A DNA stretch of 64,000 nucleotides from Cyanidioschyzon merolae (lineage: Eukaryota): the NCBI GenBank assembly GCA_000091205.1, contig AP006493.2; one strand, written 5' to 3'. Positions 10,745 to 63,670 of this stretch are shown one piece after another. Within the stretch, counting starts at the first letter, position 1, and the number at the start of each line of letters is the position of its first letter. Position numbers and translations under genes: made by a program. The notes under the pieces were generated by a model. It saw nothing but the letters and a program-made list of their open reading frames with translations, did no database searches and was not told where the DNA came from.

Positions 10745-11580
10745 TGGTTTCATCCACGTTGGAGAGTAAAGCAGGAGATCGAAATCACGATGCAATATTC
10801 CGTATAGATCGTAGACGGATTGTCTGTAGGATATATATTCTCTAGTGAACAGTGAAAGGAGAACCGCAATCATCATCCTTTAGCTCTGCCATGCCACGGT
10901 GCTAAGATAGTTGAGGAACACTGGATGAACGAAGTACATGCGTTCTGCGCCAAAAACCGATATTGTGAATGACTGCTGTTGTTCAATGGTGGATAACGAT
11001 CCGCTGATCACCACACGGAAAGCAAAAGTGAAGATAACAGCCACCAGGGGCGTGCCTGTTTCTCAACAGCTTGTTCGTGTGGTCCTGAAAACACTGGGAT
11101 ACAGTCGCAAAAAAGGGTCCTGGTTCATACACAGCCAGCTTCCATGGGAATCGAAACTACTACAGGTTTCCTGCGACTCAGTGATCGGCATGAAGCAGGG
11201 GAACCTTGGTTTGTTTTCCCAGTGGATGAGACTTGCTTCAGGTAAAATGGTCGAAGCGTATACAGGTATTCGTGCAGACAGAACCCGTTGTGTGTACGAT
11301 CGAGCTCGTAGAGAACGGGGACATGATCATACGTTCTACCTAAAGTGCATGCACTTGGCGACGTCAGTTTCGCTCGTAGACAAGGCTCATACAACAGCAG
11401 CAACCACTTTGTTGAACCATTGACAACTTTTTCCCTGACGTCCGGCGACGCCCTTCTATTAGACAACGTGACATTTCACGATGCCCTTCGCTTTGTCTTT
11501 CTTCCGCAAGACCTTCTCGCTCGGGGAACGCCATCACCTATGGGCTTGAAGCGGTGCATTCATTTTCAAAAATAAGAAAT
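10745..11580 (+). mobile_element. Decayed repeat module with a Tc1/mariner-like HTH remnant. It is a second copy of the module at 47145..47800 and is contiguous with the Fanzor-like fragment at 11590..12030.
   Basis: Its nucleotide and peptide sequence is similar to 47.1-47.8 kb. Shared peptides include 'GVPVSQ(Q/K)LVRVVL(K/E)T', 'MRLASG' and 'KAHTTAA / EGSYNRS'. The junction sequence 'ttcaaaaataagaaat' matches the 5' end of the 48.1-kb mini-element. Confidence 0.45.
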
Positions 11581-11589
11581 CTAATATTT

Positions 11590-12030
11590 GAGCTAGGGTG
11601 TAAACTTTAGAAGGTCGAGATGGAGAAAAGCCAGCAAAGCGCTCCAGCAATAGAAAAGCACGGAGGACTGACAGAGCAGCAAATTGCGCAGAGGGCGCGA
11701 GTTCTAATAATACATAAAATAGTCAGTTCCACCAGAGGCGACAAACGCATGAAGTTCGTGAACCGATTCTACAACTCCACCATCAATTTCAGACAGTGTA
11801 TGGCGTTGAAGACGAGGCCCGAGGAGAAGAGGCGGTCTAACTTTGTAGGGCAGTGTCTCAGACTCGAAGTGCGTCCGGACAAACTGAAACTGGTTGTATG
11901 CGGAAGGCCAAAAAAAGACTGGGAGGCCTGTGCACCTGGGTATCAATGTACCCTATATGGTCGTGGGTTATTTTTCGTTCCATTAATCACATTTTACATA
12001 CCTCAGGCTGTACATACTCCGATCTAATCT
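11590..12030 (+). mobile_element. C-terminal fragment of the TnpB/Fanzor-like family (degenerate RuvC-III 'VNRFYNSTINFRQC')
   Basis: The peptide 'DKRMKFVNRFYNSTINFRQCMALKTRPEEKRRSNFVGQCLRLE' aligns to the copy-A C-terminus 'DKKRMEFVNRDFNAAINIRRCAVLGNRPPE'. It also aligns to the 39-kb tail 'LKTRPEELTRSNFMGQNLRL'. A terminal-repeat-like sequence, 'aaagactgggaggcctgtgcacc', follows it. Confidence 0.5.
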
Positions 12031-18896: not shown

Positions 18897-20330
18897 TTTG
18901 CACCCATGTCAGAACAGAATAGAATAGAACGAGTCCAGTCAGGGAACGCGGGAGAGCATATTCAAGTGGGAATCCCTTCCAATTGCTCTCAACGCGAGCC
19001 TTTGGGGGCGTTTTCGTCAACTGCTTACGTTTCCTCTCTATGATCGCTGACTTTAACGACGTCGGCTTCCGCTTTCCGTCCGACTCTGTTGTCCGCATCC
19101 GAAGGACGTTCATGGCAGCGTTCAAGTGCCCGATTTCGACGCTGCCGGCTGTTGTCTACGCATTTCGTGCACAGGCAAACGTTGCGATCTACGCGTCGCT
19201 TGCCATACTGTTCGTTTTGGTGTACAGTCTGGGTGCGGCCTCCGCGGCGGCGAAAAGTGGATATGGTCAGGTATGCCCGAAGGTCCACCACGCCTCCGTA
19301 TCCGAAGGCCGCTCTGTGGCGCGACAAACGCTTGCTTTATGACTTGGTACGAGCCCTTACGGGGTAACGGGGGCTTCCGCGTCTGCCATTCTCTGATTCC
19401 GCACCTGGTGTTGTACGCTACGTTTGCGAGCCTCTTCTGGGTCGCGATCCGAGGCGACTAGTCGGTCCGCTGCACGCGCGGGCGCGCGCTGCTGCATTTG
19501 TTGTAGGTTTAGAGATGGCGATGTTGTCCATGAGGAATCATATACCGTCAGGAAAATCTGGGCTAGAGAATCGGTCGAGAAGTCTGGATCCGCGTACGCT
19601 CACTTCATGTAGAGCCGAGAAGTACGCTACAATGGAATCCATCACTGTGATGATCGAAGACTGAACTGAAGACTCGTTACGATGGAAACGGTATAGACGG
19701 GAGCCTTTGGGAGCATATTCCCTGAGAGGTATGCTGCTGGTGGTGCTGGTGCTGGTGCTGGTGCTGGTGGTGCTGGTGCTGGTGGTTCCGAGGTCGTATT
19801 CGTCGTTGACCACACAAAAAATAAGACAGCTGGTCATTCGTGTCTGATCGATTATTGTTCGTGACAAGTCCAGTAAACTTGCGGAATGAGCTTTTGCGCA
19901 AGTCAGCGAGAGACATCGTCGAGTTCGTGCTCCTCGCGAGTCCAGCAGCGCGTATTGGTGCGCTCACGAGTTGCCCCGAAACAAAAATATCTGTATTTTG
20001 AAGCACTCATGATTTGAGCGTGCTCCAGGTAAGAAAAGGAGCAGAGTGGAATCTTGTGTGAACAAATTGATCCGCAGCATCGTAGATATGGCGAGCCCGT
20101 GTCCAACATAGTCACGAATCGTATTGATTCCGGTGGTAACGGGTCGCAGGAACCAGGCTTCCAAATCCGATCAGGAGTTCTGGAACTGCTTATGAGTCCG
20201 TGAGCACTTAGAACTGCGCATCGAACGCTGAGGGTGTAGATCTGAATGTGAGTTGGGGAGAAAAGCGGATAGCTTGGACAAAGCGCGTAGTTTCCTGTTC
20301 TTTTTTAATTTAACTCTGGTGTTGCACCGG
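18897..20330 (+). repeat. Left arm of a large inverted repeat, paired with 23545..24976
   Basis: Every ORF in this arm has a near-identical partner on the opposite strand in the right arm. The coordinate sums are constant at about 43873-43879. Examples are 19126..19461(+)=24412..24747(-) and 19964..20164(-)=23715..23915(+). Confidence 0.9.
19735..19790. repeat. (GCTGGT)n microsatellite inside the left inverted-repeat arm
   Basis: The sequence reads ctggtggtgctggtgctggtgctggtgctggtggtgctggtgctggtgg. Its partner at 24093..24139 is one 6-nt unit shorter. Confidence 0.85.
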
Positions 20331-23544: not shown

Positions 23545-24976
23545 CGCACTTGCGCAACGCCAGAGTCAAATTAAAAAAGAACAGGAAACTACGCGCTTTG
23601 TCCAAGCTATCCGCTTTTCTCCCCAACTCACATTCAGATCTACACCCTCAGCGTTCGATGCGCAGTTCTAAGTGCTCACGGACTCATAAGCAGTTCCAGA
23701 ACTCCTGATCGGATTTGGAAGCCTGGTTCCTGCGACCCGTTACCACCGGAATCAATACGATTCGTGACTATGTTGGACACGGGCTCGCCATATCTACGAT
23801 GCTGCGGATCAATTTGTTCACACAAGATTCCACTCTGCCCCTTTTCTTACCTGGAGCACGCTCAAATCATGAGTGCTTCAAAATACAGATACTTTTGTTT
23901 CGGGGCAACTCGTGAGCGCACCAATACGCGCTGCTGGACTCGCGAGGAGCACGAACTCGACGATGTCTCTCGCTGACTTGCGCAAAAGCTCATTCCGCAA
24001 GTTTACTGGACTTGTCACGAACAATAATCGATCAGACACGAATGACCAGCTGTCTTATTTTTTGTGTGGTCAACGACGAATACGATCTCGGAACCACCAG
24101 CACCAGCACCACCAGCACCAGCACCAGCACCACCAGCAGCATACCTCTCAGGGAATATGCTCCCAAAGGCTCCCGTCTATACCGTTTCTATCGTAACGAG
24201 TCTTCAGTTCAGTCTTCGATCATCACAGTGATGGATTCCATTGTAGCGTACTTCTCGGCTCTGTATGAAGTGAGCGTACGCGGATCCAGACTTCTCGACC
24301 GATTCTCTAGCCCAGATTTTCCTGACGGTATATGATTCCTCATGGACAACATCGCCATCTCTAAACCTACAACAAATGCAGCAGCGCGCGCCCGCGCGTG
24401 CAGCGGACCGACTAGTCGCCTCGGATCGCGACCCAGAAGAGGCTCGCAAACGTAGCGTACAACACCAGGTGCGGAATCAGAGAATGGCAGACGCGGAAGC
24501 CCCCGTTACCCCGTAAGGGCTCGTACCAAGTCATAAAGCAAGCGTTTGTCGCGCCACAGAGCGGCCTTCGGATACGGAGGCGTGGTGGACCTTCGGGCAT
24601 ACCTGACCATATCCACTTTTCGCCGCCGCGGAGGCCGCACCCAGACTGTACACCAAAACGAACAGCATGGCAAGCGACGCGTAGATCGCAACGTTTGCCT
24701 GTGCACGAAATGCGTAGACAACAGCCGGCAGCGTCGAAATCGGGCACTTGAACACTGCCATGAACGTCCTTCGGATGCGGACAACAGAGTCGGACGGAAA
24801 GCGGAAGCCGACGTCGTTAAAGTCAGCGATCATAGAGAGGAAACGTAAGCAGTTGACGAAAACGCCCGCAAAGGCTCGCGTTGAGAGCAATTGGAAGGGA
24901 TTCCCACTTGAATATGCTCTCCCGCGTTCCCTGACTGGACTCGTTCTATTCTATTCTGTTCTGACATGGGTGCAAC
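23545..24976 (-). repeat. Right arm of the large inverted repeat, paired with 18897..20330
   Basis: It is the reverse complement of the left arm. Arm-encoded peptides are more than 95% identical. Similarity ends at the sequences revcomp-matching 'ttttttaatttaactctgg' and at '...VLTWVQ'. Confidence 0.9.
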
Positions 24977-33202: not shown

Positions 33203-36200
33203 CGGAACATTTAGGTACGTATCCCAGCTGTGATGATATGTACCATGTTTCGTTTCATACATCCATTACAGGAATGGTCTGCCTAACAGCGTAGGGCAAT
33301 TGCAGCATAGCAAGGCTGTATGCGCTGTAGGCAGAAGGAGCTGGCGTCAAGAGGTAGCGATTGCTGTCACGTTTTCTGCAGAAGAGCTATTTCGTCGCTG
33401 TAAAGATGAGAAGCATCATCGTATGCGCTTCGTGCATTCGTATCCGTGTCCGCAGCTCGAGACTGCTCCATTGCAGGTAGCTTGCGGATGCGGGAGAGCA
33501 CCCAAAGAAGGTGTCCAGCTCAGAAGCTCGCGAATTGTCGATTTTGAGACACGCTTCAGCACAGGGCGTGAAACTCGGGACGCAATGTGGCGAAATATCG
33601 AGCAACGAGGAACTCGATGCTGCGTCGAGCTTATATTTGCCGTGCGTACGACATAGGCAACTCGTGGAGATGCTTATATCCGCGGATTCGGGGTAATAAT
33701 GTTTACATCAGAGTCATATCGACATCTCGCGACGCGCACAGTGTCCAGAAACGAGTTGCCAGCGCCAGCTCCGGCACTGCGGTTTGCGCCCGGTGCATTT
33801 CGTGGTTCGAGTCAATGAACCGCGACTCGCATGGCTGGAAATACGCATAATGATTAGTACTTACGTCACATCGAATTCTTTAGCCTCGTCGCGCAATGCA
33901 GTGCTTCCCCATTTCAGTTTAGCAGGCCCATTTCGGAGGCATTCCAGACCGTTCGCGAACCAGTTCGCATAGCAGGCCAAGGCGTACGTGCCTAGAATGG
34001 GCTTCCAGCCACGAAGCCCCTTGCTTGGCAGCAGCGCAGAGCGGCTAACGACTTTGGCTCTGGTGAAGCGCTCTCTCCGAGCCACGCGTTGCTTCGGATG
34101 CTTCTGCCATTGAATACCATCGTGACTAACGCACGAACACAATCTGGAACGGCAGCGGTTGCTTGCTTCCAATAATCGAGCTTGTGTCAGCAAGCCATAA
34201 GGAAGCTCCTGGAAGTGCGGAACGACTTGTAAAGGGAGCTGGTAACCGCTGAAAGCTCGCTGCCCTGGAGAACGTCCAGCTTGACGTTTCAAATCCCGCC
34301 TGCAATCCCTGAGCCAGCGCACCCAGTGAAGGCATTACATGGAAACGTACCGAGAACAACCAAACTGGAGCAGTTTTGTATCCCAGTCGTATGACTACTC
34401 CATGTCACCGCTTATCTTATGGCGCACCCTTGATATATCCAGTAACATCGAAAAATGGAGCAGGAATCTCATTTACCAATCGTCCAGGGAAATCGATCCC
34501 AGTCTTGAGAAAGACAGCACTTGTGCATTGCGAGATCGCTGATCTGCACCATAGCGAATGCCCTGCTCCGAGCAAGAATCAAGTTCTCTCTCTCCTGACA
34601 ACTGCTTTTTTCGCCGTAAGTTTTTACGGGTTTAGCACACCGTTCTCACTGAGTATTCAAGGATTTCCTCGAATCCTCGCTCCACACACAAAGCCGCTGG
34701 AAGCTCCAGAAGCACGAATATTTTCGGCTGTTGATCGAGACGTTGAACTCTGGACGCAGAACATGTTTGCATTCACTGTTGCTGATCGATGCACAAAACA
34801 CCACGCCTTTCACTTTCGATCGCGTCACCATCAGACCTTCGCTCTGCTGACGATAATCTTTTTCGCCAAACCGTCTCCGTTTCACGGACGTCATCTCAAC
34901 CGGTTTCATCATATAACCAGGCTGGAGATACATGAATGTCGCATTGAATCCATCGATGGGAATCGTACACCATTGATGTCTAGACTCGTTGGGTGCCCTC
35001 GTCGAACGAGCTGAAGTGGAGCCCATGCTCGCTGCAGCAAGTCTGCATCCACTGGGTCCCATTAAATGACGTCATTTGTCGGTTACTTCCATTCCGACGC
35101 ATCGAAGGTTATGAGTGCTCGCTTCTTGCCTATGTAGGAACGAGACCGTTGACATCTCTCGCCCAGTGTCATGGCAGCCTATCAGAGATCATCCGCATGA
35201 GCTGTTTGGACGCACACGGACTCTCTGAATGAAGCGTACAACGCATCAGCCTCTGCTCGATGAGATGCTCAGAGCGTCGAGATGGTTCCAGACAACACAG
35301 TTTCGCTTACTGGTACGCTTCCTAGTGCTGATCATGTCCGACACCTAAGGATATCGAACCCTGAAATAATCAGGTCGCGTTGCATAGTGTGTACCGAGCA
35401 TAAGATGTCACGTGAAGTTTTGGTCCAAAATCGAATAGAAATGCAGACAGCTGGTAGATCATTGACCAGAAATTATTGCGACTGGTTGCTTGAAAAGGTG
35501 CGTCAAGGCAAGGGATGCCCGGCGAGAATCTCTCGAGTAGGAAGATATACCGTCCCTCATGGCGTCGTACAGCTCAAAGTTCGAAGATTATCACCCTGAC
35601 GTGTTTTACTACGGAATGCCTGACAACAGCATTGGACTGATGTTTCGGCTCCGTTACTTTTCCCTGGGTGTACTTCATCGTCCGTAAATCGGAACGATTT
35701 TCTCTTCTTTTTCAAGTCGTTTCCTCTCCGTCCCGTTCACCTGGCGGGCTGGCATAAATATGGCTGCTACCCTCTGTATCCGTTTTCCGTCTCGGAGCCG
35801 GAGACAGTGTGTCGAGGGCGCGTTGGAGGCTCATCTCCTCTATGCACGTGTTCACTGTTCCTGAATTATATTTCCGTTACGATCCCTTTTCGAGGATACC
35901 CATGTACCGACGAACACGTTTTCGTTCGCTCCCTCGCATTAGCAAGGAAGCAGCACATCTGTTTTTGGATATTGAACGCAGGAAAAACTTGTACAAGAAC
36001 ATTTTCTCGACTAAGATTGGTGCCACGGACATGAACGACCGTCCATAGGTATGTCAGGGCATCGACAAAAAATTTGGGAAGGAGCGAGACACAAGGAGAC
36101 CCTCTACGACGGAGACGGTGTTGAGCGATCCCGTCTGTTTCATGATTCGTAGGAGCACAGGCAACTGATTCGCCCGCTTCTGCTGAAGTTTTCGGAATGC

Positions 36201-39129: not shown

Positions 39130-39760
39130 GTCTGATTGGTTTGTTTGCGGCCTGTCACCTCAGTTGTGTTCCACCGCAGGAGCGTGTCATCAAAAGCTTG
39201 TTCGCGATTTATTAGAGATGCGTTCGAAGTGCGTTCATTTGAAGAAATGAATAATCCAAGGGATAGGCATGGGTATGCAAGTGGGGATCCTGGAAGTCTG
39301 GTGTCGCCAGTTGCCGGGAAAAACGAAAAAATCCTCTTCTTGCTGAGTATCAAGCGGAGAGGAGCATATGACGAAGAAGAGGACGCAGGGAGGCGATTGG
39401 CGACAGAAGGCGTTTGCCCGACGGAATGATGACGAGACTGCAATGAAAGAGAGGGCGCGAGTTCGAGGAAGCCGTGCAGTGGTGCGTTCAACCAAGGCAA
39501 AGCATGCAAGGAGTTCGTGAACCAAGACTTCAAAGCTGCCTTCATTGTGAGAAATGTGCGATGCTGAAGACGAGACCCGAGGAGCTGACGCGATCGAACT
39601 TTATGGGACAGAATCTCAGGCTCAAAATGTACAAGGAGAACTTGAAGCCGGAGCAGGAACTGCTCAAAAATGGCTGGGGGGCGTCTGTAAATGTGCAAAT
39701 ATATGGACTCTGTGGTTGCGTATCGTTTCATTCCATGGAACGTATTCGCAGATCGTAGCT
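39130..39760 (+). mobile_element. Internally deleted (MITE-like) derivative of the TnpB/Fanzor-like family
   Basis: An NLS-like N-terminal remnant, 'GDPGSLVSPVAGKNEK', is followed by a degenerate RuvC-III segment 'FNQGKACKEFVNQDFKAAFIV' at 39516..39548. The C-terminal tail 'AMLKTRPEELTRSNFMGQNLRLKMYKENLKPEQ' and the terminal motif 'ggggggcgtctgtaaatgtgc' follow. Confidence 0.55.
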
Positions 39761-42700
39761 GCTTCTTTTATTTTGATTGCTTAGGTTTCACGAGTAGCTT
39801 GGGTTTGTGGAACACATGAGTGCCCTTTGCACCCTTATTACTCCAAATGTACAGAGGATCTTCGCATACCTTGGTACACTGCCCTTGGTGTCTCAAGTGC
39901 TCCCTGTAAGATTTACGCAGCTACTGTATTTTGATAGAGTAGGAGTCGAAGTTGGCAGGAATGCACGTTTAGGGTCCACATTCCTCTGTGCACAAGTGCC
40001 CCTACTATCTTCCGTGTCTGTATGTTAAGGTGTCTTTGGTATCAAATGCAAGTGAGAACCGAGGTCACCAAATGTACTACGGCCTGTTGACTGCGCTGTC
40101 GCAAAGGAGCCGATGGATGCTCGCTGGACTCGCCGAACGCAGATAACAAGACACTGTACGTGAGCGGGTAATTGGCACTGGCGGCTTCATGGTCAAGGCG
40201 CGTTTGCTATAGGCAGACGTGGTGTGGTTGCGAAAAGGGGGTCCAGCGTCACCACCAGCACAAGCACCAGCATATCGATAGAAAGAATGTGGGCCACATG
40301 GAGCAGCTTCACTCCGAATGTCACGTTTGTGCCCATGTGTGCTGCATTCTGCCTGTGATGGAGTTCCAATTTGCATCGCTGTACGATGAAAAACATGTCC
40401 TGTGCCTTGATGGAGCTGTCGGCGAACGAGTCCACATGATGCGTCGTCCCGCGAATAAAGGCAATCATGACCAAGCGAAACATTTAAACTTGGTACTTGA
40501 TGCCAGCAGTTCTGCAAGCTGCGCAGAGAAATCGCTTCGAGCGTGGAGTGCAAGTTTTCAGCATCGGTGAGCAAGAAATGCGCTTGCATACTGCTTGTCG
40601 TCATCGCTTCTCGCTGGCGGCAGAACGAGTCTCCTGCATGTCAACCGCGGAGCTTTCAAAGAGAGCGAACATTCCCATGTACAGATTATTTTGAACCGGT
40701 GTCATTGACGTGTAAAATAGTCTCACGATCATTAAATTCAGATCATTTAAAGATAGCGTCCAATCTAGCGACGGGATGAAGCGCATTCCAACCGGTGCAT
40801 CGGGTTTTTGGGGTAGCGTATTCCACTGTACCAGCGGTCCCGTATAGTTAGAAGAGAACCACAAAGACGGCCGGCAGCCTTGTTCACCTGTCGGAGACTG
40901 CGCTGTACGGCACCATGCGGACCTCATGTTTCCCGCTGCTGTCACGTGTCGCGTAATATATAAATATCATGAACAATATCGAGCACCGAAACACCATCAT
41001 CGTCTCCCAATTTTCCTGAACAACTGTTTCCAATGTATAATCAGGCGCTTCCGCTCTTATCGAATACGGTTCATGCTAATCCCGTGCAGTGCTGACAGCG
41101 AGAATACAATTCTCTTAATCGTCGATCAATTTTCTTCCTTGGAATTCTTCAGTGTTTCGGCGCAATGCCAACGCTGACTCATAAAGGATTCCCTGGAAAG
41201 TTCGCTCGAAACAAAGCGGCTGTATGCTACGGGAATGCGAGACTTTTCTGGATGCGTATCAAAAAATTAAAGACTCGGTTCAGAAATCGGTTGCATGCAT
41301 GGAAGCCAGAGGAATCGCACTGTCGGAAGAACCTCACCATCGACTGCGGCACCATCCGACGTTCGGTGAGTTTATCGTGCATTATATCGCGCGTCCGGCT
41401 CTGTCTAACTCTCTTCTACTTGGCCTGTTCAGTCATGCGCCCGAGCTCATCACGCGGTGATGACGTCCTGAGCTCATCGGTTGTGGTCAACGAGAGCCGA
41501 TTCATGCTCTCGAGAAAAGCCCTCGTCGACAGAACAGCAGTGCAGCCCTTGCGCCCACCAGCACGTCCATTCCCATCTGCTACCAGCACCACAAGACGCT
41601 ACGTATCGACCGTCTCTCGTTCTGACTCATGGAACAAGTAGACGAATGAGTCCCTTTGGCATCCTTACAACCCAAGCCGTTGGCAATTCTGGCATGGTTT
41701 CAGGTACTCCTGGGAGGCATCATTCGCTCGAGCCTTTCGACGAGTCATATACGATTTGAATGAAGCATACCAAGCGTCGAAATTTGTTCGATTTGGTGCT
41801 CAGGCATCGAGATGTGTACGAACGCCGTAATTTCACATTTGGGGGGTCTCTCCTGTTGCCCATCATGTCTGGCTCAAGACGGTACCGCCCCGTGCACGAG
41901 GTCAGCAGCTTTATTTGCTTTCCGTTTGAGTCTTTCGCACCAGCCTCTGGATCTAGAGTTGCTTGGGCTGCGGCGGTGGCTTTCAGCAAGCGATCAGCGC
42001 TCACCTGGAAGTCTTTCTCTGCGCCTACCCTGAACAACTGGATATTGGTCTTTTTCCTCGACACAGGCCTAGCGTTCACAAAGTGAACAATGTTTCATAT
42101 GTTGTGCGTCTCTATCGTCCGTGTGGGCTTCTATGCATTTTGCTCCTCGTCGACGAGGAATCATGAACATGTGCCGCTAATGCTCTTCTTGAAATTCTGT
42201 GAATGCGACAAATTTCTCTTAGGGATCACTTGAAGCGCATTGAGGAGGCCAAAGAATACTGTGCAGAAAAATTTTCTCTTGGATAACATATGCCTTGATC
42301 TTACAACTGGAGACCATATTCAATAAGCGCTTGAGGGACTTCGGGCACTCAGATTCGGATAAGGCGTCGGTTTTGCTTTTCTTCTGAACGGCGCTCTGGG
42401 AAAAAGCGAAATGGCGCAGCATGCAATCTGGGTAGGGATCATGGTTCATATAACTTTTGCGTTAAACGTCCGTCGGTCTGAGGCCGAGGGCAGTGCAATG
42501 CGCTTAGACGATCTGAAGCGTCTAGCGCTCTCATTTTGGCACCTCTTTCGAACTCGACGCAATCTCGAGATCTTCCAAAAGGAGTACGTCATTTGTCTCC
42601 GTCGGCACACCCCAGAATTCATTCCATCAGGATGCACCTCCTCGGCATATGAGGTGAGGCTACGAGGGATGCAACGTCCACAGCGTTCGCTTCATGAAGA

Positions 42701-46409: not shown

Positions 46410-46980
46410 ATCGATTTTTTTTTCAGATTTTCTTTTCAGATGACAAACCGTTTAGATTGACCAAGGATCCCAGAATTCGGAATGGATATTCGCCTTCGGG
46501 AAAGCGTCTACTATGAAGCACCTACCTTCATGTGTCATTACTTATACTTCCTCTCGGATATGCTGGTCGTTTCGTATATTCTATCGTGTACCAAGTGCCT
46601 GCCGTGAAGACACGCCGTAACGCGCTTATACCACTGAAGCAGATCCTGCACGGAGACAGAACGGCTTTGGCATACCACTGAGGGCGTCGGCTCGAGGCGT
46701 GATTCATCCGATACGGGGTCGGAGCACATAATCATTCTGGGAGCCTGCGACAGCGCGAAGCGATATACTAGGAGTCCACTGCGACCAGGGCGACGCTCAG
46801 ACGCAGCGTACGCACTCCTCGTTCCAGAATGAATTGCGTTGCGAACGAGTTGCACAGGTCTCGCCACAGCACCTGCCACTGGAGGAAGCATGAAGCACTA
46901 GCTAGCCCCAGACACTCGTCCGGCTCGCGGGACCTTCCGCCTCGAAAGTAAACTTTCGAACATACGGAAACTTTCCCCAT
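46410..46980 (-). repeat. Dispersed repeat 'X' of about 0.6 kb, in minus orientation. Other copies are at 57470..58060 and partly at 63260..63670.
   Basis: It is about 80% identical over roughly 570 nt to 57.47-58.06 kb. It starts at 'ttcgaggcggaaggtcccgcga' and ends in an A-rich stretch. The paired pseudo-ORFs 46538..46891(-) and 57713..57931(+) share '...PTPSVVCQSRSVSVQDLLQWYKR'. Confidence 0.8.
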
Positions 46981-47144
46981 TTCAACGCTTACTATCAAGG
47001 TCATGCGAAACTGTTATCGAGTTGCTAGTTAGCCGTTAGTTTCTGCTCTTTCAGCAATCTGTCGGGACTCACTATGATTCTGGGAGCCTACATGGCGATT
47101 TATGCGTTGCGATACGCTACTGAAACTGTAACAATGCAATTACG

Positions 47145-47800
47145 CTTCATCCACACTGCCGTGTACAGCAGAAGATCGAAACTAAGGTGCAATGTAGTCT
47201 ACGTATCGAAGATAAATTTCGTGTAGGATATATGCTGTACTGAAAAGTGGAACGAGGACGACATTCCTTCTTCAGGTCACTCAGAACACAGTACTCAGAT
47301 TGTTGAGTGATACTAAGAAAAACAAGTGGATGTTCTCCGTATCGAAAACCGAGATTCTTAAAGCGCGTTTGCGGGCAACAGTACAGAACGACTCATTGAT
47401 CACATTACGGCAAGCTAAAGCGACGATCGCAGCAATCGCGGGCGTCCCTGTCTCTCAAAAGCTTGTTCGTGTGGTCCTGGAAACACCAGGATCCAGTCCC
47501 GAAAAAGAGTACTAGTTCACGCACGGCCAGCTTCCATCGAAATTGCAACGACAGCGTTCCTAGAACGCTCCTATCGGTATGTAGCACAGGGACGTCGGTC
47601 TGTTTTTTTAGTTCATGAGACTTGCCTCTGGCGAGACAGTCCTATCGAAAAGGGGAATTCGCAGAGCAGGGATCCCGTTATGCTTACGATCGAGCTCTAG
47701 GAGAACGAGGATACCGTCTGTGTTAGCCGTAGTGGACTGATTTCACAGCCGCAGTTTCTATCGTAGAGAAGGCTCATACAACAGAAGTATCCACTTCATC
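47145..47800 (+). mobile_element. Decayed HTH module (Tc1/mariner-like transposase remnant). This is the second copy of the module at 10745..11580.
   Basis: The peptide 'KATIAAIAGVPVSQKLVRVVLETPG' and 5' nucleotide similarity match the 10.7-11.6 kb copy. It lies between repeat X (46.4-47.0 kb) and the Fanzor-like mini-element (48.1 kb). Confidence 0.45.
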
Positions 47801-48134
47801 GGATCATTCCAGTCTTTTTCCTAACTTCTTGCAACTTGGAGCTAGTGGACAACGCAGTATTTCATCTTTCCCCTTGTGTTCTAGCTTTTGCCAATGGTAT
47901 GGTGGAGTAGTGCTGCTTTTCATTTCGCGATACTGTCTCTGATTCATCCCCACCGAAGGACTGGTTTCTTCGATGAAAGGTAATGACGTCTCCAGTGTGT
48001 GAATCACAGAAGAATTCAGCACGCGGTGACACATCGGTGCACATTGCGTCTTCTTGCGTATGTCCATCTGCCTCAGGGGAGGTCCCTACCTAGGGGCATA
48101 AAGAAGTGCGTTCATGTTCAAAAAAATGAAAATT

Positions 48135-48480
48135 CCAAAGGCAAGTTATGAACATGAAAGTCGAGGATCCTGGAGGACCGGTGTCGCCGGGTTCGAAGAA
48201 AACGAAAAACTACTCTTCACGCCGACCATCGAGCGAAGGGAGGCAAGTAGCACAGACGAGAGAAGATAGACGGGAAAACATATTTACCCTACTGGGCGGT
48301 GACAAGACTTTAGTGGCACAGAGTGCACGAGTTCTTGCAATCTTCGCGGTGGTTTATTCAACCAAGGCAATGCGCACAAAGAGTGCGTGGACCGAGACTT
48401 CAACGCTGCCATCTATATCAGACGATATGCAGTGCTGAGGACGACATGCGCGGAGCTTATTGGATCCAGCCCCAGCTGAG
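48135..48480 (+). mobile_element. Internally deleted (MITE-like) derivative of the TnpB/Fanzor-like family that retains an intact RuvC-III motif
   Basis: An NLS-like region, 'KVEDPGGPVSPGSKKTKNYSSRR', is followed after a frameshift by 'FNQGNAHKECVDRDFNAAIYIRRYAVL' at 48391..48420. Confidence 0.6.
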
Positions 48481-54341: not shown

Positions 54342-54849
54342 AGGTATCGGTTGTTTGTTATTCCTGCACGATACTGGATGGGATGCTCGACACGATGCAA
54401 TAAAAACGCACTATGAGAAATGGCTGTATTCCGAGCGCGTTGCTACTCATGGATCCCTCGTCGATGCAGAGCGTTGTTGTTTGGGTGCCACGTGAGCCTG
54501 CCTCCTGGCGTCCTCGATGCTCGTCGCCATGTATCGTACCGCGAGTCCAAGGCTCGTTGGACTATGGCAAAGTAGGATCGAAATGTAAGCATGAAGTGTA
54601 GGATCAAACTCTCGATTCATGGGCGATGCGCGAATAGAGATCGTGATGCGTACTGATGACTAACTGGGGATGATCGAAACATCAGCAATCATTTGAAAGC
54701 ATCACTGATGATTCATTTTGGGGCGCTATCGACGTAACGAGTTGCTGCAGCGCCAGAGAAGCCCCTTGATGGCTTGTCGTCTCAGAATCGAGCGTTGTAT
54801 CCATGCCTGATGGTCAACGGGACTGGAAAATTACCGAAATGGAACTGTG

Positions 54850-57175
54850 GGAATGTTTGCAGCGGTATCGCGAGCTTTCACATGCCGACACCGAACACTT
54901 TCCAAAAGTCGAACGATGCCGACCGTGTACAGCAGTGGCGGACGGTGCGCCCTAGACGACGTCTCCATCAGACGTGTAGACGCCTCCCCGTCTTTTTGGA
55001 CCGGCCACCCACTACTGTCTCCAACTTTTTCTCATATTGTTTGACCTTGAGAGGTTGTCCAAAAAAGTTCCTTCTTGTTCACTCTGGAGGTCTGTTCCCC
55101 AGCACCGCACATCTCCGGATATTGATAGCGGCATTAAAATCTCGATTCACAAACTCCATCCGTTTCTTGTCATTACTAGTTGTACTTACTAGTGCAAGTA
55201 GCCCTCGCACTTTTGCCATCCTTTGCATTTGCTTTTCCGTCTGCGGTCCGTACTTTGCTATTTCCTCAGGACTCCTCTGGCACTTTTCCATCTCAACTCT
55301 CTGAAGTATACTCCCCAGCTCATGGAGTGTATACGATGTTCGAAACTCATATACAGGTATCGTAATGAAACGCCGTGCACACTCGTTGTACGTTCTCGTC
55401 GTTGGAGCTCGAGTAGTCCCTTTTTGGGTCTTCCATAGCCCTGCCCCATACGCTACTACGAGACTCTGATTCTCGTCCTTTTTGAAGGCACTCAACTGAT
55501 TGAAAATGTCGGCAAACGCCCGCTGCCTCCCACCATATAGATTCATACGCAAACGAGACCACCGGGGCTTGGTATATTCCTCCCACAGTGCATCCCAATG
55601 AGCAACACGAACTTCCATGAATTTCCGAAAAGCTTCAAAGTCCGCTCTTTGGCTCGACACCTCGCTCAAAGCTTCCAGGTGATCCTTCATCCCTCCATTC
55701 CATGTCTCGATTCTCGATTGTATCTCGATCTCGAGCACCTCAAAAGACGCTTGTCTTTCTGGCTTTAGTTGCCGTCTGTGCCATCTTACCCACGCTTCGA
55801 TGCTGCGATGGTTATGATATTCGTATTCCCAGCGTCCGCGCCAACCATAAAGTTGTTAGCCTCCACCTCCTGCGTCGCAGGACCCGCCTTTCTCTCATCT
55901 TCATGGCTCACCAAGGGCGGGACTCGACGATCTTTCTTCAATAGCCGTTAGTGTACACCCAAGGCTACACCATCGGTTTCGATCATCCCAGTGGACAACT
56001 TTGCTTGCTCGCTCTCAGACGTTTGAAATTGAAGATGTTCTTCCAGTACGTCTGCCGGTATTCGCCGGCGAAGTCCTCCCTACTAGCATCGAACTGGGGA
56101 CTGATCTCCTTCATGATGCCGTGAAGGATTCTGGAGTCGGTACTCACAAAATGTGACTTGATGTTGCACATTGGAACCGCGTTGAGGTGCTTTCTCATTA
56201 GGAAAGCTTTCCGTCTCTCCCACTCTTCATTTTTTCCTCACTCTGCTTCATCTCTGCCTTGCGTTCGAGCTCTGGTCCAGAAACACGAAATAGCGCAGGA
56301 CGAGGCGATAGTATTTTTCTTTGTCTTTTTTCAACTCTGATATCTGTCTGCTGGATTCGCCAGCCCCAAGACTGCACCGTGCTCATGTATAACCGAACGG
56401 ATGAGGGAATTCTCATTTGTGCTCCTGCTTGACGGCTTCTTATCGACGAATTCGACTTCATCTTCATGCTGGCGATCTTTCGCTTTTCCATTGATAATCG
56501 CCCATATTCCTTTGCGAGAGATGCCCGGGTACAGCGCAAACACGGCACGTATTATGAGACGTTCGAGTTTCACGATTACGTGATTCTTCAGGTTCGTGAT
56601 GTACTTCGTCGCCCCTTATACGTAAACATTCGAATCACCTCTGTATGGAGTACTGTTGAAGCTGTGGAAGGGACATTTTTTGTGGAGGTCATGCACTCGC
56701 TCCTTCCTCATCGATGCTTTTCTTGTGTCAGCCATCAGGTGACGAATAAAGCTCTTATCGAAAAACTCGTCCGGAATCTCGACCGTTTCCATGTGCATCA
56801 CGTCGCGATACATCTCGCTCGCCAAATGCATCAGTCCTGACGACGCCTTGACGATACTCTTGGAGTACCAGTCGACACGGTTTCTGATAGCTTCTTGCTA
56901 CTTGAACGGATCCATGATATGTACAAGAAGACAGGCTTTCACCACCATCTCGTTGCACAGTCGTCTTTCTTGCCGCCTTCGACCTAGGGCCTTCCCCTTT
57001 CGGTCCTTCTTCTCTCTTTTTTCTTCTGGATTCCGCATTGTCTTTTGCTTTTTTTTTTCTGGCAGCCGGCGACCCTGGACCTCCAGGATCGTCAACTCGC
57101 TTTTTCATAGCTTTTTTTTTCATCTTTTTTGTGAAAAAGAACGCTCTTTGAACCCTCCTGTTATATGCCACGACA
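54850..57175 (-). pseudogene. Copy A: the longest copy of the TnpB/Fanzor-like (OMEGA RuvC nuclease) element. Its coding region is decayed into several frames.
   Basis: The best fragment, 55079..55738(-), carries the RuvC-II-adjacent block '...ITIPVYEFRTSYTLHELGS...' and the RuvC-III block 'RMEFVNRDFNAAINIRRC'. The lysine-rich N-terminal region 'KKMKKKAMKKRVDDPGGPGSPAARKKKAKD' lies at 56755..57171(-). The middle segments at 56331..56573(-) and 55983..56198(-) match copy B at the peptide level. The 3' terminus at 54960-54990 carries the hairpin AGACG-cctccc-CGTCT. Confidence 0.65.
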
Positions 57176-57469
57176 AAACGCTCGAATATTTTTAGTCGAG
57201 GGTTGAAACGGCATCGGACTGGAAGCTATGATTTGTTACGACTTCCACACAAATACAGCTTGCCTGTTAGAACAGCAAGAAAACGTGTCGTCACGGTCGC
57301 GTTTCTCTTCAAAGGCGACATATGCGTCGTGTCTCGTAAGTGCCATACTTGGAGATGCACGTATCGAGCGCGCCATACAGGAAAAAGGACAGTGACTTAC
57401 GATTTACAAGAAACGATGTAAAATTTTTTCCCGCTCTACGATAAGCGTTTAAGGGGAAACAGATCGCCG

Positions 57470-58060
57470 TATTATCGGAAGCTTATGTTCGAGGCGGAAG
57501 GTCCCGCGACCCGGTCGAGTCTACCGGGCTAAAGCTCGGTATGCCTCTAAAGTGGCCGCTGCCGCTGCTGCTGCAAGACCTGCGTAGCTCGTTCGCAACG
57601 CATTTTATCCTGAGACTATGCACAGGATGCTGCGTTGGGCCTCGCCCTGGTCGCAGTGGAACCCTAGTACAGCACTTCGCGCTGGCGCAGGTAGTAGGTC
57701 TTTCTGCGCACTTTGCATGTTCCCAGAATGACAAATAGCCCTGATTCCGTTTCAAGTGAATCATTCCTCGAGCGGACGCCCTTAGTGGTATGGCAAAGCC
57801 GTTCTGTCTCTGTACAGCACCTGCTTGAGCGGTATAAGCGCTACAGCGGGTGCTCACAACAGGCTCGGCGCTCGATAGAACATACGAAACGACCAATATA
57901 TCAGAGAGGTAGTATGGATAATGGGACTTGAGGACAGGTGCACTATGATCGAGATATCCCCGGAAGCCATCGTGCGTTCCGAATTCTGGGATGCATGGTC
58001 AATGCAAACGTTCTTTCATCAAAAAGAAAAAAACGCTCCGGAGGCGGACTCGTCATCGAG
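57470..58060 (+). repeat. Repeat 'X', plus orientation, immediately upstream of the copy-A N-terminus
   Basis: See 46410..46980. The order and opposite orientation relative to the Fanzor-like ORF match the 46-48 kb locus. Confidence 0.8.
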
Positions 58061-60599: not shown

Positions 60600-62850
60600 G
60601 ACCGAAACGTCTCGTAAGACCACCGCACCCGACGACAACAAACATCTTTCGAAACAAAAACGTTGCTGCCGGCAGTAGACAGTACTGGCGAGAAACTCGC
60701 CCTAGACAAGAAGTCGCCAACTGACGTGCAGACGCCTCCCCGTCTTTTCCGACCGGCCACCTACTGTGGGTACCATTTGTTCTTATATAGTTCCAGTTTA
60801 AGAGGTTGTCCAACAATGGACTCTCGTGTCACCGCTGGGAGTCTTTTGTCTATTCCCGCACATCTCCGTAGATTGATTGCAGCGTTAAAGACTCGGTTCG
60901 CGAACTCCATACGTTTCTTGCCGATGGTAGACGTACTTACTAATGCAAGTAGTCCACGAGCTTCTTCCCTCCTTTCCATTTCCTCTCCCGTCAGCTGTCC
61001 CTTACTTTTTTATATCATGACGACTCCGCGGGCACTTTTCAATCTCCATCTTCTGAAGAGTACATCCCAACTCGTGGTGTGTATACGATGTTCGGAACTC
61101 ACCCACAGGTACCGTAGCGAGACCCAGTGCGCACTCCTTGTCCATTCCTGCCGTTGGAGCTGGTGTAGTCCCTTTTTTCGGAGCCCAGCCCCCTACATCA
61201 TATGTAACAACGAGCCTCTGACTTGATCGTCTTTCAAGCCGTTCAACCCATTGAAAAAGCTCGCGAATGCGTGATGCTTACCACGGCACAGATTCATACG
61301 CAAACGTGCCCAGCGGTGCTTTGTATACTCGCCCTACAGCGCCACGGAATGAGCAACCCCAACTTCCAAAAATTTCAGAAAAGCTTGAATGTCCGCTCAT
61401 CGGCTCGTCACCACGCTCAAAGCCTCCAGGTGATCCTTTATTCCTACATTCCACGTAACGATCTTCTTCCTTGCATTCGTTATACCGGATTCTCGATAGT
61501 ATCTCTCTCTCTCGAAAACCTCAGCAGAAGCATATGTTTGTGGCGTAAGGTGCAGTCAGTGCAATCTTCCCTTCGCTTGTGAACAGCGATGGTTATGAGA
61601 TTCGTGCTCCAGGGACTAAGGCCGACGCCAAAGTGGTTTTCATGGGGCTTATACGTTCCATAGCCCGTCAACCTGTGTTCGTTCTTCGGCAAGGGCCGTA
61701 AAGAAGACGGGATAGGACGAGCTGCCTTCAACCGCTGATGGTGTACACATATGTGCGCCACATCGAGATCGATTGTTCCAGTGAATAACCTTTTTTTGGC
61801 CGGTTCGGGACACTTGAAATCGAAGATATTCTTCTCGTAGGCGTCCCGATCTTCACCGGAGACCTATTTGTTGATTACATCGAGCTATGGATAGATCTCT
61901 TTCCTGAAGATGCAAAAGGACTATGGGGTCGATATTCACAAAATGTGACTTGAACGCGCATAACCGACCGACATTGAAGCGCATCTGGAGAAGACTTCAA
62001 TGTCGTTTCTCGCACTCGTCTTTTTTTCCACACTCAGCTCCATGCCGACCCTGCGATCGAGGTCTCGGACCGAAAACATGAAGCAGGGCAGGTTGAGAGA
62101 GTAACAACTCTATCCGTCGTTTCTCATATCCGAGAGTTTTCTCTTGGGTTGACATGACCCAAGACCGAACGATGTTTTAGAATAGTCGCGCGAATTACAG
62201 AAGCATCATTCATTATCCTGCGTGATGTCCTCTTGTCGACGAGTCTGATCTCCTGTTCATGCTGGCGATCGTTCTTCATACCGTCGATGATTGCAAGCAT
62301 CCCTTCGCGAAATAGGCCATGGTACAGCACAAAGGCGACGCGTATCATGAAACAATCGAGGTTTGCCATTTTATGGTTCCTCACATTCATAAGGCACCTC
62401 TTTGCCCTGTATTCGTAAATGTCTGCGTCACCCCTGTGTTCAGCACCGAAGACGAGGAATTTGGCGTAATTTTTGAGGAAGGCATGCACTCGCTCACTTA
62501 TCCCCGATGTTTTCCCATTAAAAACAATCAGGTAGTTGATGAAAGTCTTTTGGAAAAATTTTTCCGGAAACATCACTTTCGCGATAAGCGTTACGTCCCG
62601 ATGCAGGTCGCTGTCCAAATGCCAACGTCCTAAAGAGAAGATACAAACATACCTGGCGTACGAACCGACACGGTTTCTGATAGCGTCTCGCAACAATCAG
62701 TCGTACGGATCATTGATATGTTGGAGAAGATAAGATTCCACCACCATCTTGTCGTACAGAAGTCACAATTTCGGCCTTCGATGTAAGGCCCTCCCATGTT
62801 GCTTCTTCTTCTGTTCTTGACCCTCTTCGCTAAGCACTACGTCTCGTTTC
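60600..62850 (-). pseudogene. Copy B: second long copy of the TnpB/Fanzor-like element. It is more decayed than copy A.
   Basis: The ORF 60761..60979(-) reads 'LLALVSTSTIGKKRMEFANRVFNAAINLRRC...GQPLKLELYKNK'. The ORF 62124..62696(-) matches copy A at '...GMLAIIDGMKNDRQHEQE...'. The 3' end at 60721-60745 contains 'gacgtgcagacgcctccccgtctttt'. Confidence 0.6.
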
Positions 62851-63259
62851 TTTCTGACATCCGGCAGCACCGGCCACCCCAAACCCACAACCTCCAAATA
62901 CATAAGTCTAATTTTTGTTTTGGGAGAAAAACTCATTGGACGCTTCTGCTTTGAACGGCGAAAATAAGTTGAATACCCTTACTTAATGATTGAAACGCCA
63001 TAGGAGCCAAAACTATACTTTGCTACGATTCGATCAGAAATACAAGTGGCCCCGATAGAGCAGTCGCTCCAGAAGAGGTCATTACCGCGTTTCTATTGAT
63101 CGGCGAGATGCACGTAGCGTGACGTGACGGCCAGATTTCGCGATGCGTTACCAGGACGCACGATATAGAAAATGCCAAAAAATTGACAATATCCAAAAAC
63201 GGGGTACCAAGTACTAACGCCACCTACTGTAGACGTTAAAAGGAAGAAGTCTTTGCGTA

Positions 63260-63670
63260 TGGTCAAGCAGTGACATATAGGCGGAGGGTCGGCAAGCAGC
63301 GAGACTCTACCAACCGCTAATACCGGTTGACCATACAGTTGCGAGTGAAGTGACACACCCTAGCATCCCATCCGAAAAAGAACAGATTCTGGAACAAGGA
63401 GCGGATATATTGCGTCTAAGCGTGACCTAGATTGCGGTAGACTAATGGTATAGCGCTTTACGCTATCGCAGGCAAAAGGTCTGCAAGAACAGCTTGAAGG
63501 CTCCAAAGAAAATAAATTTCCCTGATCCCATGTTGCATGAACCAAGACCCTTCCAAAGCGCTCAGTGGTAGGCCAGAGCTGATCTGTTTGAAGAGTGCAA
63601 CAGCAACGAAGAAAGAGAGGCTACGGCGGGTGCTCAGAGCAGGTAGACGGCGCAGGAGAGAAAGTCTGAT
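63260..63670 (+). repeat. Partial repeat 'X' upstream of the copy-B N-terminus
   Basis: The sequence 'ggcggagggtcggcaagcagcgagactctacc' matches X 'ggcggaaggtcccgcgacccggtcgagtctacc'. The sequence '...gctacggcgggtgctcagagcaggtagacgg' matches X '...gctacagcgggtgctcacaacaggctcgg'. Confidence 0.5.

Follow-up and report, generated by a model that had tools for sequence, protein, structure and literature searches.

The 64-kilobase (kb) window analysed here is nuclear DNA of Cyanidioschyzon merolae 10D, and its interval at positions 54850-55080 is, with near certainty, where a defunct Fanzor1 (TnpB-like) nuclease element on the minus strand (copy A) has its 3′ end, as judged by alignment with its relatives. 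A previous sequence-only reading took this interval for about 200 nucleotides (nt) of conserved non-coding DNA behind the nuclease open reading frame (ORF), closed by a hairpin of 5 base pairs (bp), and proposed it as a candidate right end or guide RNA (omega RNA, ωRNA) region. The features of copy A on which the argument depends are the following.

54885-57373, minus strand: Fanzor1 (CMe-1A-like) core of copy A, a pseudogene, delimited by self-BLAST, tblastn, homologues and profile
55082-55738, minus strand: longest surviving ORF fragment of copy A, carrying VYEFRTS and NRDFNAAINI (100% identical to P0001)
55079-55081, minus strand: premature TGA of copy A, a site at which relatives encode Leu, Trp, Ser or Met
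54978-54993, minus strand: the flagged hairpin AGACG-GGGAGG-CGTCT, read as codons K-T-G-R-R-L, with no structural support
54955-55078, minus strand: former C-terminal coding tail (TRRNFFGQPLKVKQYEKKLETVVGGRSKKTGRRLHV...), from homologue alignment
54952-54954, minus strand: position of the family's genuine stop (TAG), out of frame in copy A, from family alignment
54934-54954, minus strand: remnant of stem-loop 1 (family consensus UAGGGCGGG-UUU-CUCGCC.CUA), 81% paired across copies
54886-54921, minus strand: terminal hairpin (stem-loop 2) of copy A, from folding
54860-54884, minus strand: flank just outside the element, where conservation has collapsed (boundary ±~5 nt), a candidate guide if an ωRNA is made

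The Fanzor1 identity is near certain. Neither the ORF fragments nor the longer homologues have a match in Pfam, and a phmmer search of the PDB with the longest ORF alone found none; only a profile of distant homologues succeeded. This profile, built from 26 homologues, matches the solved Fanzor1 proteins PpFz1 of Parasitella (9cf0, E = 1.7e-22), SpuFz1 of Spizellomyces (8gkh, E = 1.6e-17) and GtFz1 of Guillardia (9cer, E = 8e-8) in alignments that span DPG, DEFRTS and NRD..NAA..N, and these matches uphold the earlier view that the interval closes a nuclease gene of the TnpB/Fanzor type at its 3′ end. The RuvC motifs of the family consensus are GADPGNTN, VDEFRTS and NRDFNAAINI, including the relocated glutamate, and copy A keeps them as GADAGNTN, VYEFRTS and NRDFNAAINI; their catalytic roles would be those of the aligned residues of PpFz1. 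The locus thus combines homology to characterised proteins, RuvC motifs and residence in a multi-copy mobile element of a eukaryotic nuclear genome, all expected of a Fanzor1, but it has no intact ORF. When copy A is compared by tblastn with the longest intact-looking relative (L029, 772 amino acids, aa), frames -2/-3/-2/-1 are required, that is, at least three frame changes in addition to the premature TGA, and copy B is in a similar state. All window copies, A to E, are pseudogenes or fossils from which no activity is expected here.

An exhaustive HMMER search returned 1244 relatives, and 600-700 aa is a frequent length among them. Close protein homologues number 227; related places in a handful of metagenomes number 347, and 80 of these, fetched as loci, form the locus sample together with one genomic window (64 kb). 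Family-wide, the three codon positions of the ORF body are conserved at 0.88/0.91/0.75, a pattern that indicates a protein family under purifying selection. Over the final 75 coding nt the values are 0.80/0.81/0.76, so that the last 25 residues are relaxed and synonymous sites are without clear extra constraint. Most copies are pseudogenes, yet their codon positions are clearly under purifying selection; this suggests that several long-lived active lineages, and not the decay of a single burst, underlie the diversity of the family.

The family fits the published description of CMe-1A, a C. merolae transposon with ~150 copies of ~3 kb that are ~80% identical to their consensus, without terminal inverted repeats, with target duplications undetermined or none detectable, and with a 5′ segment of 635 bp that is common to TE-N2_CMe (Bao and Jurka, 2013; PMC3627910). 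The present elements share the host, the multi-copy ~3-kb organisation, the ~80% likeness among copies, the lack of terminal inverted repeats and the 5′ module of ~635 bp, and encode a Fanzor1 protein. They differ in that the copies in the window are pseudogenes, and the 3′ terminal structure described below has no counterpart in that paper, which reports neither such a structure nor a guide RNA. The label CMe-1A is given on the agreement of these published traits. The transposon family itself, as well as the rule that places Fanzor guide RNAs at the 3′ right end, was already known.

The conserved stretch behind the stop codon of copy A is mostly former coding sequence. The ORF at 55079-55738 terminates in ...VNRDFNAAINIRRCAVLGNRPPE*, a RuvC-III-type motif, and conservation continues for ~193 nt after its stop; copies A and B can be aligned on the minus strand from within the ORF to ~54886 and 60635, respectively, beyond which identity is at background (0.24). 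The conservation seen by the sequence-only reading in the ~200 nt after the stop is therefore real, but its non-coding nature is not, because ~125 of the 193 nt form the C-terminal coding tail in intact relatives and can still be read in frame. Past the TGA the frame of copy A runs on as TRRNFFGQPLKVKQYEKKLETVVGGRSKKTGRRLHV, and homologues with an intact tail end in ...GGRSKKTGRRLHVSWRRFV or ...RPPELTRENFVGQPLKVELYEKKLEAVVGGRSKKTGRRLHVSWRRFV*; since these intact homologues carry the tail, the TGA of copy A is premature. In copy B the genuine stop lies at 60702-60704 and the coding tail is frameshifted. Identity between A and B in the flagged region (0.70-0.76) does not exceed that found along the ORF (0.62-0.86). 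For similar scans the lesson is that conservation of apparently non-coding DNA behind a stop may belong to the coding tail of a pseudogene, and that a short perfect hairpin in such a tail carries no weight.

The flagged 5-bp hairpin is just such a case: it is coding sequence, and neither terminal nor RNA-structural. The sequence-only reading had placed it at 54975-54990 and 60733-60748, and the motif does exist in both copies, though 3 nt away, at 54978-54993 and 60730-60745. The related sites elsewhere in the window are as follows.

60730-60745, minus strand: counterpart of the flagged hairpin in copy B, inside the frameshifted coding tail of that copy
11914-11934, plus strand: degenerate motif in copy D (AAAGACTGGGAGGCCTGTGCA), in frame (KKDWEA), no stem
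39669-39689, plus strand: degenerate motif in copy E (AATGGCTGGGGGGCGTCTGTA), in frame (KNGWGAS), no stem

In favour of the earlier idea, in which AGACG/CGTCT forms the terminal hairpin of an ωRNA shortly before the end of the element, the surrounding 21-mer AAAGACGGGGAGGCGTCTACA occurs exactly at 54975-54995 and with one mismatch at 60727-60747, with zero occurrences expected by chance, and some ωRNAs do overlap the 3′ end of the ORF. A search allowing up to three mismatches, however, found the 21-mer in A and B only. The recurrence claimed for the 11.6-kb and 39-kb copies holds for a degenerate form with 4 (copy D) and 6 (copy E) mismatches by manual count, but there the stem is absent and the motif lies in the reading frame. 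Among 66 unique copies the 5′ arm varies (AGCCT, AGACT, AAACT, AGGCT) against a fixed 3′ arm, CGTCT, with no compensatory change in any of them. A 51-nt segment of copy A containing the hairpin shows no folding excess (z = -0.14), the flagged stem being missing from both the minimum free energy (MFE) structure and the centroid, and the matching 42-nt segment in 52 copies has a mean z of 0.01; a conserved structure formed by these arms is not supported. By our own estimate, 64 kb of sequence should contain hundreds of perfect 5-bp stems closed by a short loop, and family-wide conservation at the hairpin (0.79-0.80) is not above that of the ORF (0.82-0.88). Finally, the conserved region does not stop at this hairpin, since homology continues for ~93 nt past it; any guide would accordingly begin not immediately outside the hairpin, as had been supposed, but ~95-100 nt further, below ~54885. 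A terminal ωRNA hairpin at this position is thus scarcely credible.

The interval does contain the right end of the element, as the sequence-only reading had proposed, and this location is near certain. Conservation across the 66 copies collapses at ~54880-54885, column identity in their alignment falling from ~0.7-0.9 to ~0.3 after ...GTTGTCGG or ...CGTTCGTTGTCGG, and in 89 locus hits the stretch homologous to copy A stops at 54869-54947, for most of them at 54886-54925. Some sub-subfamilies share a further 8-15 nt beyond the common hairpin (GGTGYCRGCAT; GGTGGCTTGTCCAT; TTTCCAGGGG), as seen at 54875-54890 of the window and in L008, L017, L025, L012, L028, L067 and L068; these extra common nucleotides suggest that the 3′ terminus varies between lineages. 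GGTG-like repeats are common just past the 3′ boundary.

Between the family stop and this boundary lies the true non-coding tail, ~68 nt long (54885-54951) and on the same strand. It consists of stem-loop 1, which includes the stop codon and has an invariant core of 4 bp extendable to 6-9 bp, followed by a conserved single-stranded linker (CCACUACUGUACAC) and by a terminal hairpin of 13-19 bp, which stops a few nt before the element boundary and is predicted in nearly every copy. The corresponding region of copy B retains the fold.

60634-60705, minus strand: tail of copy B, with the stop at 60702-60704, stem-loop 1 at 60687-60701 and the terminal hairpin at 60634-60670 (z = -2.72; nhmmer match 60706-60635)

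The terminal hairpin is structurally conserved. Representative tails of the two main subfamilies (types I and II) take the same fold, each with z = -5.0 and with none of 200 shuffles as good, even though the subfamilies differ at ~8-10 positions in homologous columns of the hairpin, which is GGCGTCGTTCGA-CTT-TCGAACGGCGTT in type I and CAACGTTTTTC-TTTT-GAAAGACGTTTG in type II. The two types pair in different registers: type I sequences are 89% paired in register 1 and 61% in register 2, whereas type II sequences, in identical alignment columns, are 86% paired in register 2 and 55% in register 1. RNAalifold recovers the hairpin in each type independently, with three pairs changed on both sides in type II, and GC to UA compensations occur at two pairs within type I. 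When ten sites were substituted at random, a hairpin as stable as that of type II arose in 2.7% of trials; with the positions fixed and the bases random, it arose in none of 5000. The terminal 42 nt have a mean z of -1.65, with 49% of copies below -2, compared with 0.04 in the flank and ~0 in coding controls. The structure is also strand-specific, the MFE being -13.3 kcal/mol for the sense and -7.8 kcal/mol for the antisense strand (sense better in 46 of 49 copies, p = 5e-9), and G·U makes up 21% of the hairpin pairs. Sequence conservation in the tail (0.66) is lower than at third codon positions (0.75) and the fold is nevertheless kept, from which it follows that structure, not sequence, persists. 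A conserved 3′ structure across copies, as the sequence-only reading had anticipated, is therefore present as a terminal fold kept in two registers; it is not the hairpin that had been flagged, and its column-wise covariation is weak.

From its position and layout, this right-end module is probably the ωRNA scaffold of the Fanzor1 element, fossilised in the window copies. In published Fanzor1 systems the structured tail of the ωRNA abuts the right end (PMC10432273; PMC11423790), solved Fanzor1 ωRNAs consist of stem-loop SL1 and, in compact cases, a single SL2 ahead of the guide (PMC11423790), and other Fanzor guide RNAs likewise originate in the non-coding 3′ DNA next to the right end (PMC10530073). 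Because guide RNAs occupy this place in published Fanzor1 loci and because a two-stem tail of ~68 nt fits them, the scaffold is rated the best explanation of the module. In active members, transcription of the module would occur together with the 3′ end of the Fanzor mRNA or start from it; the RNA would reach ~15-20 nt into the flank; the Fanzor1 protein would bind it as its ωRNA; and the flank would serve as guide. The identity and boundaries of the element, the coding status of the flagged hairpin and the structural conservation of the terminal one are established by the data above, whereas transcription, protein binding and guide function are all proposed here by analogy. Thus, of the earlier proposal that the interval is an ωRNA or right-end region, the right end is borne out by the boundary collapse and the structured tail, and the ωRNA is plausible by analogy with the published systems.

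The likeness to the ωRNAs of SpuFz1 and PpFz1 (Saito et al., 2023, PMC10432273; Xu et al., 2024, PMC11423790) lies in the two stem-loops ahead of the guide and in the homologous protein. Three differences should be noted. First, SL1 of the solved Fanzor1 ωRNAs has 7 bp, compared with the invariant 4 bp of the C. merolae stem. Second, inverted repeats of 30 nt and numerous "ghost" right ends devoid of an ORF occur in Spu-1, and the C. merolae family has neither. Third, no sequence similarity to those ωRNAs was noticed, and none was searched for. C. merolae is mentioned neither in Saito et al. (2023; main text, and supplements as far as covered) nor in Jiang et al. (2023; main text), and the present analysis provides this genetically tractable, thermo-acidophilic model alga with a concrete, testable candidate for the scaffold of its Fanzor1 family, defined by consensus and exact coordinates. 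If it is a true scaffold, it would be among the shortest of Fanzor1, and its two register-shifted hairpin versions would reveal which features the protein actually needs.

Several results weigh against the ωRNA scaffold. When all 66 copies are pooled, RNAalifold finds almost no structure; this failure arises because the two subfamilies pair in different registers, and splitting by type resolved it. Covariation within type I is marginal, with 12 double-change cells against 8.2 ± 2.0, a count that 27 of 500 shuffles reached, and column-wise covariation as a whole is weak. That of stem-loop 1 equals the shuffled controls, so that this element is kept only as a conserved potential stem. The tail of copy A has decayed and folds no better than shuffles (z = 0.03), with the terminal stem kept. 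No conservation excess reaches into the coding region, nhmmer found no RNA-only or ORF-less "ghost" right ends, and the position of the 3′ boundary differs by 5-15 nt from one sub-subfamily to another. The comparison of flanks for a target-adjacent motif, which the sequence-only reading had suggested, was carried out, but no transposon-adjacent or target motif is definable from the flanks of the examined copies, the 5′ edge having several repeated upstream contexts and the 3′ edge being fuzzy. A(T/G)CG does precede a hairpin at the 5′ edge of the core in several upstream contexts, but these are partly the same repeat and the true 5′ edge is imprecise.

The same tail could instead be the ordinary 3′ untranslated region (UTR) of the Fanzor mRNA, with stem-loops that serve 3′-end formation or stability and play no guide role. 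It follows the stop directly on the sense strand, its structure is strand-specific, and a conserved UGUA lies in the linker, all of which would suit an mRNA end. The poly(A) signal of C. merolae, however, is UAAA, used by 93% of genes (PMC8831791), and it is found in only 2 of 36 tails, as often as by chance; a role as poly(A) signal or plain 3′ UTR was rejected as unlikely on this ground. Furthermore, the structure lies exactly at the element boundary, and it is a guide RNA that occupies this place in characterised Fanzor loci. A mere UTR is thus very improbable.

A different function for the hairpin is suggested by the 5′ end of the element. The 5′ edge of the core, where the alignment of all copies starts, is marked by a GC-rich hairpin, GCGCTC-NNN-GAGCGC, seen in alignments only: in the window at 57357-57373 (copy A, decayed) and in L005, L008, L014, L020, L031, L043 and others. 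In most cases A(T/G)CG stands in front of it, regardless of the upstream sequence. Together with the terminal hairpin, the core thus appears to have hairpins at both ends, which could help to explain the mobility of a transposase-less family that has been unclassified since 2013. The two hairpins could be single-stranded DNA (ssDNA) cis signals for a trans-acting transposase, HUH/Y1-type or other, as in IS200/IS605, and not, or not only, an RNA scaffold. The absence of terminal inverted repeats and detectable target-site duplications from the family (PMC3627910) would agree with this, as would a terminal hairpin ending a few nt before the boundary and a core alignment that starts at the same 5′ hairpin in several different upstream contexts. 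On the sense strand, DNA parameters likewise yield a fold of the terminal hairpin (z = -4.0 and -3.0), which leaves room for an ssDNA role. Fanzor proteins descend from TnpB of IS200/IS605-type elements. In those bacterial elements, one right-end DNA serves both as transposition signal and as RNA.

On the other side, no transposase is reported for the family (PMC3627910) or was noticed in the loci, where, as in the genome, no dedicated screen was made; the 5′ hairpin is known by inspection only; and the 21% of G·U(T) pairs and the strong strand asymmetry fit RNA better than DNA. A Helitron-like signal of this kind is disfavoured by the 3′ ends, which are ...GGTG, ...GTTGTC or ...CCAGGGG and not CTRR. 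Replacement of the scaffold by a DNA signal is considered unlikely on balance. The DNA reading is in any case compatible with the ωRNA, and a DNA role of the hairpin may coexist with an RNA role.

Compared with IS200/IS605 elements carrying a TnpB ωRNA (e.g. ISDra2), the C. merolae element likewise has a TnpB-family nuclease beside a structured right end, with a hairpin near the 3′ end and a putative one at the 5′ edge; it is described as lacking inverted repeats and detectable target duplications (PMC3627910), and would take its guide from the flank. In contrast to them, it resides in a eukaryotic nuclear genome, no TnpA is reported for it (no screen was made), and its candidate scaffold is much shorter and lacks detectable overlap with the ORF. 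It is conceivable, albeit doubtful at present, that CMe-1 is a Fanzor1 element with an IS200/IS605-like architecture throughout, that is, with hairpin ends and without inverted repeats, target duplication or a transposase of its own. Its right-end hairpin would then be at once an ssDNA signal and the guide-proximal stem of a minimal ωRNA of ~68 nt, evolving by register shift rather than by column-wise compensation. If so, the family would be a living link from bacterial TnpB elements to eukaryotic Fanzors; and since C. merolae grows at ~42 °C and pH ~2, it might also yield a compact nuclease that is guided by RNA and tolerates heat.

Some Fanzor1 genes are carried in Helitrons, the hallmark of which is a pair of termini, 5′-TC ... 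CTRR-3′, and a hairpin lying 10-12 nt before the 3′ terminus. The C. merolae element resembles a Helitron 3′ end in its stable hairpin ~5-15 nt from the 3′ terminus and in the lack of inverted repeats and target duplications. It differs in having no associated Rep/helicase gene and in its termini, the 5′ core starting with CGCTC... and the 3′ ends being ...TTGGTG, ...GTTGTC and ...CCAGGGG; a Helitron was therefore rejected. Affiliation with Replitrons was also rejected, because the termini do not fit and, according to the Replitron paper, red algae have no Replitron proteins. Rfam has no match at the gathering score in the whole window and none at E ≤ 1 in 54700-55200.

Within the window there are five recognisable copies and two remnants of the family, placed as follows.

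~54885-58030, minus strand: copy A as a whole, including the 5′ module
57375-58030, minus strand: TE-N2_CMe-like 5′ module joined to copy A (inverted match to 46428-46991; 5′ homology begins at ~58020-58030)
~60634-63500, minus strand: copy B, from self-BLAST
46428-48460, plus strand: copy C, from self-BLAST
10749-11940, plus strand: copy D, a fragment, family member
39226-39690, plus strand: copy E, a fragment, family member

Copies A and B are 68% identical over ~2.1 kb. The TE-N2_CMe-like module of ~650 nt stands head-to-tail before the core in copies A (57375-58030, minus strand) and C (46428-46991, plus strand), and in L030, L038 and L047 it is inverted and abuts the 5′ hairpin of the core; either one element targets the other or the two have a common insertion site. 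Two very degraded Fanzor-like remnants lie on the minus strand at 34721-35368 and 41176-41832. Both are 25-28% identical to the family protein over its RuvC half, and they are related to each other by tblastx; at least seven Fanzor-derived pieces are thus present in 64 kb.

The acidic linker before RuvC-I (..KDEENKEADPATQKVQDNDFVV..) is encoded by a 69-75-nt unit that is tandemly repeated, with a copy number varying among relatives (window 55836-55904, minus strand; L008:3495-3788). An apparent 5′ truncation at ~55904 was set aside as a probable artefact, since BLAST alignments break at this repeat, and L008 was rejected as the orthologous locus of copy A, the host flanks of the two not matching. 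Copies D and E fall into a more remote subfamily that has a common 3′ tail of its own (..TATATGG.C..GTGG.TT....CGTT.CATT..; 11690-11990 and 39450-39760, plus strand), which is unrelated in sequence to the A/B tail and contains, in copy E, the palindrome TTCCATGGAA.

The neighbouring ORFs in the window are plastid-type and eukaryotic genes, and two match BAM80641 (thylakoid lumen rotamase) and BAM80643 (BRAP2-like) exactly. The window also holds an inverted duplication of 1.4 kb (18898-20325 and 23554-24975), ~99% identical between arms that lie 3.2 kb apart; it contains (GCTGGT)n-type repeats and is unrelated to the Fanzor copies.

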